A DNA stretch of 64,000 nucleotides from NCBI GenBank assembly GCA_963555985.3, contig OY820591.1, forward strand, positions 672,001 through 736,000. Direction: 5' to 3'. The notes under the pieces were generated by a model that searched no databases, was not told the origin of the DNA, and saw nothing but the letters and a program-made list of their open reading frames with translations. This DNA comes from Dehalococcoidia bacterium (GTDB lineage: Bacteria; Chloroflexota; Dehalococcoidia; Bin125). The position numbers were made by a program, and so were the translations under genes. This document shows positions 5,469-53,151 of the stretch, piece by piece (position 1 is the first letter of the stretch; each line of letters opens with the position of its first letter).

Positions 5469-5632
5469 GAGGCCTTTGCGAAAGCCCAGCTTGTGCGGCT
5501 AATGCCTTGGAGGAGCGGATCGCGCGATGGGAGGTCGGTGGTACGACCAGATTGGGAGTGACTTCACACTTGGTTGCTTCGAGATTCCCGCCTGCGCGGG
5601 AATGACGGAAACGGGAGTTATGCATCGGTCTC
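5469..5632. mobile_element. MITE copy 1 (~164 bp) with IS5/IS1106-like terminal inverted repeats
   Basis: Ends GAGGCCTTTGCGAAA and TTATGCATCGGTCTC; the interior is largely shared with 30490-30652 and carries GATTCCCGCCTGCGCGGGAATGACG. Confidence 0.75.
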
Positions 5633-29862: not shown

Positions 29863-29953
29863 GCGCTCCGTGATTGCCGCGCTCAGCGGCGTCGCGGGAA
29901 GAGCGGAGAATGAGGCGCGCCCGCGACTTATACTCGCTGCGAGGCGGGAACGC

Positions 29954-30367
29954 ATGATGACTGACTCTCACGCGCTGATTGACGCGATTGCCGAGCGAAT
30001 CGGTGAATCAGATCAGCGCCGCGCGGAGCAGTTCCTGGACGATCTGCGTCAGGAGGGCCGCCTGCCCGGTCGGCGCGGACGTTTGGCATATCGTCTGCGC
30101 CGCGCCCGGCGGACCCTGCGCGGCTGGTTCGGACCTGTGTTTGAGGCGGTCAAGATCCTGTTCACCGGTCGGCGTCCTGCTTCGTACTGGGTGGATTTGA
30201 TGGATCAGCTGACCGCCGACGGGTGGTCGGAGGAACGCGCGGGCCAAGAGGTCGCCTGGAAGATGCGTAGGGAGGGCACTGACCAGTTGCTCCGATGGGT
30301 CCTCTGGCTTGGAGTCATTTGCATCGTCTTGACCATCGTCATGTTGGTGCGCGTCATCATGGCCTAA
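29954..30367 (+). CDS. Hypothetical protein with a C-terminal TM helix
   Basis: TATACT upstream, GAGG RBS, C-terminal hydrophobic helix. Confidence 0.5.
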   Translation: MMTDSHALIDAIAERIGESDQRRAEQFLDDLRQEGRLPGRRGRLAYRLRRARRTLRGWFGPVFEAVKILFTGRRPASYWVDLMDQLTADGWSEERAGQEVAWKMRREGTDQLLRWVLWLGVICIVLTIVMLVRVIMA

Positions 30368-30392
30368 TTCCTTTCCGTCATTGCCGCACAGG

Positions 30393-30694
30393 GAGACGTT
30401 TGCTCAATCCTCGATCTGCGCGTTTCGTCATTCCCGCGAACGCGGGAATCCACGTCCCACTCGAGACGACGCATGGATTCCCGCCTGCGGAGACGTTTGC
30501 GAAATCCACCCCAGTACGTTGGGGCTTCGGAGGAGCGGATCGTGCAATGTGAGGTCGGTGGTACGACCAGATTAGGAGTGATTTCACACTTGGTTGCTTC
30601 GAGATTCCCGCCTGCGCGGGAATGACGGAAATGGGGATTCTGCACAGGCCTCCCCGCGCGGGAATGACGGAAATGGGGATTACGCGCAGGTCTC
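30393..30694. mobile_element. Outer MITE containing a nested MITE
   Basis: Ends GAGACGTTTGCTCAA and TTACGCGCAGGTCTC; contains palindrome CGTCATTCCCGCGAACGCGGGAATC and a split palindrome. Confidence 0.65.
30490..30652. mobile_element. MITE copy 2 (~163 bp) nested in a palindrome spacer
   Basis: Ends GAGACGTTTGCGAAA and TTCTGCACAGGCCTC; flanked by CCTGCG / CCCGCG (apparent 6-bp target duplication); homologous to 5469-5632. Confidence 0.78.
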
Positions 30695-52189: not shown

Positions 52190-52351
52190 GGGTGATGCTC
52201 CTGGGCCTCAGTGTAGGCGGGTGGGCTTGTCGCACAGGCGGGGTGCATTGTCCGAATTGCGGGCACGGTAGGGACTGGGCGGTCGCGATTCGCGGCCTCG
52301 CGGGGCTGTGAGAAAAAAACGAGGTGGGGTTTGCCGCTTGCGGTCGGGGGA

Positions 52352-52708
52352 TTACGGCGGCTCTTCCTCTTCCTCGAGGCTGTCGTCGTCGTCCGGCAGG
52401 GGCACGTCTTCGCCGCGCATCAGGGCCACGGCGATGGCGTGGGGATGGAGGTGGAGTTCCTTCTTCTGCTCGGGCGTAAGGGGTGCTTCGGGCAGGCGGG
52501 GGGAGTGGTTGGCTCGGGGTTTGGGCGCGGGTTCGGGATGGGGTTCGAGGTCGAGGGCGTGGTGGATCTCGCGGCTCTTGGAGTTGGAGGGGGAGAGTTC
52601 GCGGATGAGGAGGGCGAGCGCTTTGATGCGGACGTGGCCGGCTTCGTCGGAGTGGGCGAGTTGGCCGACGCCGGTCATGCTGGACTGGTAGGTGTAATCG
52701 AAGGGCAT
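52352..52708 (-). CDS. Small hypothetical protein with an acidic tail, paralogue of 5618-5833
   Basis: MPFDYTY..VRIKALALLIRELSPSNSKSREI; AAAGGAA RBS; conserved upstream region. Confidence 0.7.
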   Translation of the reverse strand: MPFDYTYQSSMTGVGQLAHSDEAGHVRIKALALLIRELSPSNSKSREIHHALDLEPHPEPAPKPRANHSPRLPEAPLTPEQKKELHLHPHAIAVALMRGEDVPLPDDDDSLEEEEEPP

Positions 52709-52826
52709 GGCGGGGTGTTCCTTTCTTGGGAACCTACGTTTTGGATAGGTGAGTTTATATGTTCTGATGTTCGGGTTGCAAACTGGTTGGGTGTGTTGTG
52801 GTTGTCGTTGGGGTGGTTTGGGGAGT

Positions 52827-53151
52827 CCCCCCCTCTGCCTACGGCATCTCCCCCCGCAAGGGGGGAGAGGGGATAAGGGAGGGGGAAGGTTGGTAGTGCT
52901 CACATCGAGATACCCGCGACGGAGCGCGGGTATGACGGAGTTTTTGGCAGGTATAGCGGTGTTGCGGGCGTTTGTGCTGGGTGTGGTGCTTCACCCCCTC
53001 TGTCACTTCGTGACATCTCCCCCCAAGGGGGAGATTTTGGGGAGGTGGGGTGAGGGTTGGGTACTGGTCACGGCGAGATACCCGCGACGGGGCGCGGGTA
53101 TGACGGAGCTCTGGGCGCGGGTATGACGGTCTTGATTTACGCAAAGGTCTC
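52827..53151. repeat. Cluster of palindromic repeats ending in a MITE-type TIR
   Basis: Double hairpins at 52827-52868 and 52994-53034; GAGATACCCGCG palindromes at 52907 and 53075; TTACGCAAAGGTCTC at 53137-53151; 53052-53107 differs from 5936-5991 by one base. Confidence 0.8.

Follow-up and report, generated by a model that had tools for sequence, protein, structure and literature searches.

At positions 30393-30694 of a 64,000-nt stretch of a Dehalococcoidia bacterium genome (C1:672001-736000, where C1 is contig OY820591.1; this whole stretch is called the window below), one MITE (miniature transposable element with inverted repeats) lies in the centre of a palindrome carried by another MITE, and the 6-nt centre of the palindrome stands on both sides of the guest. 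Such nesting is a regular outcome in this genome, where the elements of this family combine 15-nt ends of the GAGRCCTNYGCNNAA type, a CGTC-tagged repetitive extragenic palindrome (REP) hairpin and a variable core. The locus combines known kinds of sequence, namely an IS5-type MITE, a CGTC/SRM REP and REP-targeted insertion. The arrangement is probably the result of transposon-type insertion of the MITEs into palindrome centres; for the mobilising enzyme, our tentative choice is an IS1106-like transposase of the IS5 family that would have acted in trans and is now absent.

The nested locus

The nested locus is intergenic, located between two co-directional open reading frames (ORFs) without Pfam matches, 3' of an inositol monophosphatase gene. 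Its parts, together with two other places in the window that carry related ends, are as follows.

30361-30392, plus strand: truncated solo element end, comprising the inner part of the end repeat, the CGTC tag, the half palindrome ATTGCCG and CACAGG
30393-30694, plus strand: outer (host) MITE, which starts with GAGACGTTTGCT and finishes with CGCGCAGGTCTC
30393-30489, plus strand: left part of the outer MITE, with the end repeat at 30393-30407, the left arm ATTCCCG at 30477-30483 and the centre CCTGCG at 30484-30489
30426-30452, plus strand: CGTC-1 REP in the left part of the outer MITE, CGTC + ATTCCCGCGAACGCGGGAAT + CCA
30490-30652, plus strand: inner (guest) MITE of the 163-nt class, with ends GAGACGTTTGCGAAA / TTCTGCACAGGCCTC
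30604-30627: intact CGTC-1 REP inside the inner MITE, palindrome at 30604-30623 and GACG tag at 30624-30627
30653-30694, plus strand: right part of the outer MITE, with the copied centre CCCGCG at 30653-30658 and the end repeat at 30680-30694
30659-30669: right arm of the split palindrome, CGGGAATGACG, that is, CGGGAAT and the GACG tag
5469-5632, plus strand: 164-nt sister of the inner MITE, also of the 163-nt class, whose intact CGTC-1 REP is at 5584-5603
53120-53151, minus strand: further element end of the same superfamily, GAGACCTTTGCGTAAATCAAGACCGTCATACCC..., adjoining CTCTCCCC+ACCG

The inner MITE splits the host palindrome ATTCCCG-CCTGCG-CGGGAAT, and the centre is found on both sides with one mismatch (CCTGCG / CCCGCG), as had been proposed in a preliminary description of the window made from its letters alone. 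On reading the window, we found each string and coordinate of that description in its place, with some corrections. The intact palindrome that it had placed inside the inner element at 30603-30627 is there, its exact bounds being 30604-30627. The sister of the same length is also present (164 vs 163 nt) and has 91% mean column identity with the inner element, but nearly all of this identity is in the well-conserved 3' 124 nt, while the first 39 nt have little in common with the inner element beyond the end repeat; the flanks of the sister, CGTTCG / CGCGAG, do not match, differing at three of six positions, which weakens the local picture. The outer element, 139 nt long without its guest and assigned to the 133-nt size class, had been described as starting after a half-palindrome plus 6 nt, and this is true of its left side, where CGTCATTGCCG-CACAGG (30376-30392) stands immediately 5' of it, but has no counterpart on the right. 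The truncated solo end to which this half-palindrome belongs is similar to GCCTAATCCCAAATTCCGTCATTCCCGCGCAGG of other copies and overlaps the stop codon of the ORF at 29870-30367. Folded as a single strand, the inner element is unremarkable (z -1.14), and the elements had no Rfam match other than one sub-threshold chance hit.

That the nesting is an artefact of assembling a repeat-rich metagenome bin is barely conceivable. The bin (3.33 Mb, 65% G+C, 11 contigs, 96% complete) does have 7.5% contamination, its small contigs are strain variants, 95-99% identical to parts of C1, short-read contigs break inside the repeats, and among the contigs listed none spans the junction 30652/30653 without differences. 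However, the junctions 30392/30393, 30489/30490 and 30694/30695 are spanned by error-free short-read contigs in three runs (all from one study, possibly the source of the assembly), and the same nested geometry recurs in further assemblies and at no fewer than 17 additional loci. Short-read joints skipping approximately 150 nt proved to be cross-matches between REP copies and were not taken as evidence.

The element family, its targets and its spread

A BLAST search with the inner element yielded 31 matches of at least 100 nt in the genome, self included, and its last 50 nt match many more places. The genome contains 91 exact ATTCCC-N8-GGGAAT palindromes, and a 34-position pattern, in which the end repeat is joined to the adjacent CGTCATTCC, occurs 63 times, compared to 0 when read backwards. 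Full-length copies were called by BLAST with six reference copies of 122, 133, 141, 144, 163 and 166 nt. The resulting 46 elements form six size classes, in which different cores and REP types occupy the same shell, bounded on both sides by the end repeats; the elements are small (122-166 nt), non-coding, located between ORFs and present in many copies. The hairpin, which has the form CGTC-ATTCCCGC-N4-GCGGGAAT-CCA, is next to one or both element ends.

A perfect 6-nt flanking repeat was observed in 11 of the 46 full copies, and one with at most one mismatch in 19. When the right flanks were shuffled among the copies, the respective means were 1.75 and 6.04, and none of 5000 shuffles reached the observed counts. 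In 30 copies the next 5 nt beyond the repeats on the two sides are complementary, and hence the flanks are two halves of one palindrome. For 17 of the 46 copies this palindrome is the CGTC-1 REP of another copy, and three-deep stacks occur (left flank of the copy at C1:3015318); in a copy of the 141-nt class that carries an IS30 element, a perfect CGCAGG repeat is found inside ATTCCCG-CGCAGG-CGGGAAT. In eight of the twelve copies of this class, identity with the reference copy is 95% or more, and therefore the amplification is not ancient. Thus, what had been described for one locus, inverted-repeat-bounded MITEs nested in palindrome centres with the centre duplicated, holds for the family, and, as had also been suggested, each insertion adds a new target, since the elements carry such palindromes.

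Among the REP-linked ends on C1 (n = 115), 70 directly adjoin a YCCCS+6 half-palindrome, which precedes 0.5% of random positions; this background frequency is all that was kept of a looser end definition, dropped because it was swamped by GC-rich coding sequence. Three types of palindromes were entered.

CGTC-1 REP, carried by the elements: 32 adjoining ends, 82 intact sites
TCCCCG-N6-CGGGGA palindrome: 15 adjoining ends, 43 intact sites
CTCCCC-N6-GGGGAG palindrome: 19 adjoining ends, 46 intact sites

As the number of ends per intact site is similar for the three types, targeting is not specific to the element's own palindrome. The self-targeting postulated in the preliminary description had to be given up accordingly: unrelated C-armed palindromes were entered about equally often, and the proteobacterial copies described below are at non-palindromic AT-rich sites. 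The two kinds of ends have different neighbours, the GAGG-type ends adjoining YCCCG+6 in 42 of 51 cases, and the GAGA-type ends adjoining YCCCC+6 in 20 of 64 and YCCCG+6 in only 8 of 64. The length of the repeat tracks the spacer between the arms: it is 6 nt except at C1:147626 and C1:3035437 (5 nt), C1:1570743 (7 nt) and locus L027 (9 nt).

The pattern of an end plus a REP was not found in 30 relatives, 18 of them from the same family. Elsewhere we observed it at 25 loci in 8 metagenome-assembled genomes (MAGs), and at 13 further loci in metagenomes. The MAG loci are distributed as follows.

Dehalococcoidia, three assemblies: 13 loci
Other Chloroflexi bin: 1 locus
Betaproteobacteria bin: 7 loci
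Deltaproteobacteria/Desulfobacteraceae, three bins: 4 loci

In the low-GC carriers the elements are approximately 133 nt long, have CGTC REPs with other stems, and are located at AT-rich non-palindromic sites; of the eleven copies at non-palindromic sites outside this genome, nine have a 5-nt duplication, one has a 6-nt duplication and one has none. On the Dehalococcoidia chromosome OZ242948.1, perfect 6-nt repeats inside CCCCG-N6-CGGGG were observed at four of ten loci, and repeats with one mismatch at two more. Hence palindrome targeting seems to be a trait that becomes visible in places rich in such palindromes.

The genome contains several other repeated units. A dispersed unit of approximately 2.2 kb, found at C1:106883-109038 (L004) and at four further loci, codes for an acidic protein of 118 aa and for a 473-aa protein similar to the terminase large subunit (Terminase_6N, E 5e-8); its five copies, 88-96% identical, are embedded in REP arrays in different unique contexts. 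The part encoding the acidic protein alone has about 22 copies, one short form being at 52261-52947 of the window. A 283-aa protein (C1:261154-262005; L002 1655-2506) with approximately four relatives combines a helix-turn-helix at its N-terminus with a C-terminus made of internal repeats, and upstream of the genes of this family stands the very sequence that forms the middle of the 163-nt MITE class. Finally, there are six copies of a putative endonuclease gene, assigned to the Uma2 family (DUF820) from its translation only, two of them in tandem (C1:216313-217739, 755615-756275, 1968211-1969623).

The hairpin and the candidate enzymes

The palindrome is no private feature of the element. By its sequence, it is the already described CGTC-1 REP, that is, the Neisseria dRS3 or NTS-SRM hairpin. 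The CGTC-1 family of Di Nocera et al. (2013, PMC3733652) has an 8-bp stem beginning with AT, a 4-nt loop and a CCA tail, and takes in the Neisseria repeats. Here, 81 of the 82 intact copies have the CGTC tag, with an 8-bp stem starting with AT and a 4-nt loop, which is GCAG in 40 copies and GAAC in 22; of the 81 tagged copies, 47 have a CCA tail and 32 a CTC tail. The REP copy in the window agrees with 27 of the 28 positions of the NTS consensus (CGTCATTCCCGCGMAVGCGGGAATCYRG). A BLAST search of PLSDB with the locus matched chromosomes of Neisseria gonorrhoeae and sequences from Photobacterium, Cupriavidus, Azospirillum and others, covering only the palindrome and its flanks; the matched gonococcal locus is a typical array of Neisseria intergenic mosaic elements (NIMEs). 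According to the survey of Di Nocera et al., CGTC-1 "apparently lack[s] a dedicated transposase", and the part of the survey drawn on here does not name Chloroflexi among the phyla that carry CGTC repeats (PMC3733652). The summed word depth over the REP hairpins at 30410-30471 and 30596-30657 was 10^4-10^5 in runs X1-X4, against 3-16 over the flanking genes, and the motif is therefore common to many members of the sampled communities.

The NTS and the wider class SRM have been described as the hairpins recognised by Ssn, small single-strand nucleases of the GIY-YIG type, whose genes typically have hairpins on both flanks, and a gene with its hairpins is said to resemble an insertion sequence (IS) (Chenal et al. 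2025, PMC11893778). We found two small Ssn-like GIY-YIG ORFs in the genome (C1:84724-85011 and C1:2090400-2090615), each between CGTC REPs of different stem types. One of these putative nucleases has 51% identity with the only gonococcal homologue, which adjoins NTS copies; the REP 3' of the first gene is split by a MITE of the 141-nt class. GIY-YIG homologues were found in all five other carriers searched. SsnA cleaves single-stranded DNA upstream of the hairpin and not in its centre (PMC11893778), and thus does not account for the position of the insertions. As to other enzymes associated with REPs, the Y1 transposase domain of the REPIN/RAYT systems (PF01797) had no matches in this genome, and neither did PF01548 of the IS110 DEDD transposases, the PivNM or bridge-RNA type of integration into dRS3, for which PF02371 was not searched.

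The ends of the MITEs point to another kind of enzyme. In a gonococcal record, the pattern GAGRCCTNTGCAAAA has 14 occurrences against 0 for the reversed pattern, and these include five inverted pairs approximately 660 bp apart; between the ends of one pair there is a 149-aa ORF, a transposase remnant with DUF772 (E 3.5e-12). DUF772 is the N-terminal domain of IS5-type transposases. The ends of the gonococcal element are GAGACCTTTGCAAAA / GAGGCCTTTGCAAAA; the 15-nt MITE end is identical to its right end at all 15 positions and to its left end at 14. Two of the three gonococcal copies read are flanked by 5-bp repeats, ATGCC and GGCAT. These copies are probably IS1106, judging by their copy number and not by an annotation. 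This number agrees with the five to seven IS1106 copies reported for gonococci (PMC3454330). IS1106 is classed in the IS5 family, with a reported preference for REP-bearing spacers (Tobes & Pareja 2006, PMC1525189; PMC3898611). Thus, the IS1106-type ends to which the preliminary description had likened those of the MITEs were recovered, and the link to an IS1106-type element by end sequence and duplication length appears to be real; two of the three gonococcal copies and the proteobacterial MITEs have duplications of 5 nt, as against mostly 6 nt here, where the count is ambiguous because the 6-mers run from C to G. It is because of the identical 15-nt ends and the 5-bp duplication in Neisseria that an IS1106-like transposase is the best candidate, although a tentative one. 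Separately, the gonococcal copies that were read (L056, L059) directly adjoin DNA uptake sequences (ATGCCGTCTGAA), duplicating ATGCC/GGCAT.

The genome also has an active-looking IS of its own, of the IS30 family (C1:128526-129565 and nine other copies, none of them in the window), approximately 1040 bp long and encoding a 338-aa transposase (NF033563, 217 bits). For nine of its ten copies the insertion point is one and the same, located in the left arm of a CGTC REP (GGA-TTC-CCGC), and 3 nt are duplicated there. The five REP-targeting IS families named in the part of PMC1525189 drawn on here do not include IS30. That this resident transposase also mobilises the MITEs is hardly credible, even though it is the only recently active one that we found (copies 99.4-100% identical, with one insertion missing from the strain-variant contig C8), even though the nine copies lie inside REPs of these elements, and even though a Betaproteobacteria MAG (L018) has an IS30-like end at this position of the REP. 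The ends of the resident IS, CCTAGTCTCACAG / GGTGGGTTCACAT, do not resemble those of the MITEs, its duplication is 3 nt (TTC, AAG), and three MITE-bearing genomes had no homologue for the IS30 query.

The Betaproteobacteria MAG (G031:C124; L035 1160-2913) contains an unrelated IS, which encodes a DDE_Tnp_1 transposase of 428 aa and has perfect 17-nt ends, GCATAAGCGCTAACC. It lies in the exact centre of the CGTC-1 REP of a MITE, with the eight central bases GCGCAGGC duplicated, and is a third kind of element landing in the same hairpin.

How the elements may move

In the reading that we prefer, insertion by a transposase, the elements would be moved by a cut-and-join reaction with a short staggered cut, which at ordinary sites would leave a 5-nt duplication and rarely one of 6 nt. 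In this GC-rich genome the reaction would be drawn to short palindromes with C-rich arms (CCCS-N5-7-SGGG), the transposase perhaps recognising the hairpin, and would cut just inside each arm, so that the whole centre, usually 6 nt, would be found on both sides. As the carried REP fits the target, copies would land inside copies, hence the nesting at 30490 and the stacked half-units elsewhere, while recombination among the many copies would account for mosaics, unmatched flanks and tandem half-units. The ends, the duplications, the target preference, the nesting and the spread across phyla are seen in the sequences themselves; the chemistry and the enzyme we infer.

A number of observations weigh against this reading. 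Several concern the enzyme. PF01609 (IS4/IS5 DDE), PF05598 (DUF772) and PF13340 (DUF4096) had no matches in the 96%-complete genome, a search that did not extend to further Pfam families of the DDE_Tnp_1 kind, to rve at large or to tyrosine recombinases; the gonococcal DUF772 protein, an N-terminal query, had no matches in any of the six carrier genomes; none of the DDE_Tnp_1 genes of four other carriers (12 loci) is bounded by MITE ends in a scan that demanded GAG. All paired ends on two complete Dehalococcoidia chromosomes are 170-200 nt apart, which is the size of a MITE, and a metagenome scan likewise yielded only MITE-sized elements. The only long pair, with AAGACC ends 1754 bp apart (G031:C124), was rejected as an autonomous partner, being a MITE that holds the unrelated IS described above. 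The preliminary description had looked to an autonomous IS with the same terminal inverted repeats, and to the lack of any transposase with these ends in the genome or its relatives as a sign against its proposal; the gonococcal DUF772 element has the same 15-nt ends, while no such partner was found in this genome and the five other carriers, six carriers searched in all, which leaves that sign half present. Other observations concern the footprint. Right of the outer element there is TATACT in place of a matching half-palindrome or repeat, and hence the footprint there is incomplete; a repeat length that follows the spacer is unusual for one transposase; and since 64 of the 70 6-mers start with C and end with G, the outer bases may belong to the ends, and duplications of 4, 5 and 6 nt are indistinguishable. 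In the strain-variant contigs compared, we observed no presence/absence polymorphism of a whole MITE. The last two points, that the good 6-nt repeat is missing in 27 of the 46 full copies, and that several copies are flanked by halves of two different palindrome types, are also what would be expected under the main rival.

According to this rival, the arrays are built by recombination or template switching at REP hairpins, perhaps aided by Ssn, with the centres being crossover scars, as has been considered for the NIME arrays of Neisseria, where dRS3-directed recombination has been proposed. The structure of the copies is indeed mosaic, the inner element and its sister having only their 3' part in common. 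A 41-nt unit (end repeat, half REP and centre) present in C1:1364375 is missing in the strain variant C5:9013, and tandem 42-nt half-units occur in L002 of C1; such half-units are thus gained or lost between close strains. The two Ssn-like genes between CGTC REPs would also fit. As the sole mechanism, recombination nevertheless seems unlikely to us: the elements have conserved inverted ends, 5-nt duplications flank nine of eleven copies at unique non-palindromic sites elsewhere, the agreement between the left and right 6-mers is above that in all shuffles, and the cut made by SsnA is in the wrong place.

The direction of insertion could also be the reverse, with the long inverted repeat (GAGGCC...TTTC / GAAA...GGCCTC) being a resident palindrome and the CGTC REP dimer being the mobile insert. 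Di Nocera et al. interpreted CGTC-1 dimers in 41-bp palindromes of Halothiobacillus in this way, as REPs inserted into a palindrome (PMC3733652). CGTC REP dimers do occur in unrelated shells, that is, this Halothiobacillus shell and a Cupriavidus copy with GGTAATGCCGTTCAGT ends, and a 40-nt end-to-end pair without a REP was observed in G033:C378. Still, the duplications are outside the shell and not at the border between the shell and the REP, the same shell holds different cores in six size classes with different REP types, and the shell is the same as the ends of a transposase-bearing Neisseria element, all of which makes this direction very unlikely.

Insertion of the MITEs by a transposase remains, then, the probable course, and the elements can be compared with known systems on this basis. 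IS1106 of Neisseria has 15-nt ends identical to those of the MITEs, GAGRCCTTTGCAAAA, followed by (A)TCCCCA, and both are associated with dRS3-type REPs; unlike IS1106, the MITEs are 122-166 nt long and non-coding, with REP hairpins beside their ends and a fixed insertion point, the palindrome centre. The IS1202 family makes small duplications of 5-6 nt. Its members that target dif/pdif, such as ISAjo2, likewise use a short palindromic site with a 6-nt centre, but these elements are autonomous, belong to another family, and land next to the site, at a distance of 5 bp from the XerC arm, instead of in its centre (PMC10132070). One fixed position in a REP is also used by IS1397 and ISKpn1 (IS3), ISPpu9 and ISPpu10 (IS110) and ISRm22 (IS4), for which REPs are hot spots; all of these, however, are autonomous elements that do not carry the targeted REP, whereas the guest here is a MITE that brings a new target (PMC1525189). 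In contrast to the CGTC REPs of the 2013 survey, which were given without a link to a transposase (PMC3733652), the hairpins here ride in elements bounded by end repeats and flanked by target duplications, and are landing sites as well.

A further likeness is to NIMEs, which have the same 20-nt consensus, ATTCCC-N8-GGGAAT, and form mosaic intergenic arrays with many repeat families; but in NIMEs a complete dRS3 stands on both sides of the RS units, whereas here the palindrome is split and each half adjoins an inverted end repeat (Bentley et al. 2007, PMC1797815). The part of that paper drawn on here gives NIME arrays as not seen outside Neisseria at the time (PMC1797815).

Much of this is already known: that REPs are insertion hot spots, that IS1106 favours regions with REPs, and that IS-derived shells can enclose REP dimers. 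Hence the advance is incremental unless the enzyme and a structure-guided cut are demonstrated, and the mobilising enzyme and the spacer-dependent duplication are the points of real interest. At the same time, the CGTC/dRS3/NTS REPs are among the most widespread bacterial repeats, their mode of multiplication is unsettled, and this genome shows a concrete route, with pairs of hairpins between IS1106-type ends, target duplications and preferred landing in other hairpins. The same package of terminal inverted repeats and REP is present in at least three distant lineages. The target rule for an IS5-type end is precise, CCCS-N5-7-SGGG with the cut just inside the arms, and would be useful for understanding insertion into safe sites.

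It is possible, if rather doubtful, that the process goes further, and that MITE shells of the IS1106 type carry CGTC-type REP hairpins as cargo, both inside a phylum and from one phylum to another, and home into hairpin centres, with the cut fixed relative to each C-rich arm and not by a fixed stagger. A cut placed in this way would suggest capture of an extruded hairpin or cruciform, and the result would be a self-reinforcing loop building NIME-like mosaic arrays. If true, this loop could explain the first origin of such arrays in Neisseria.

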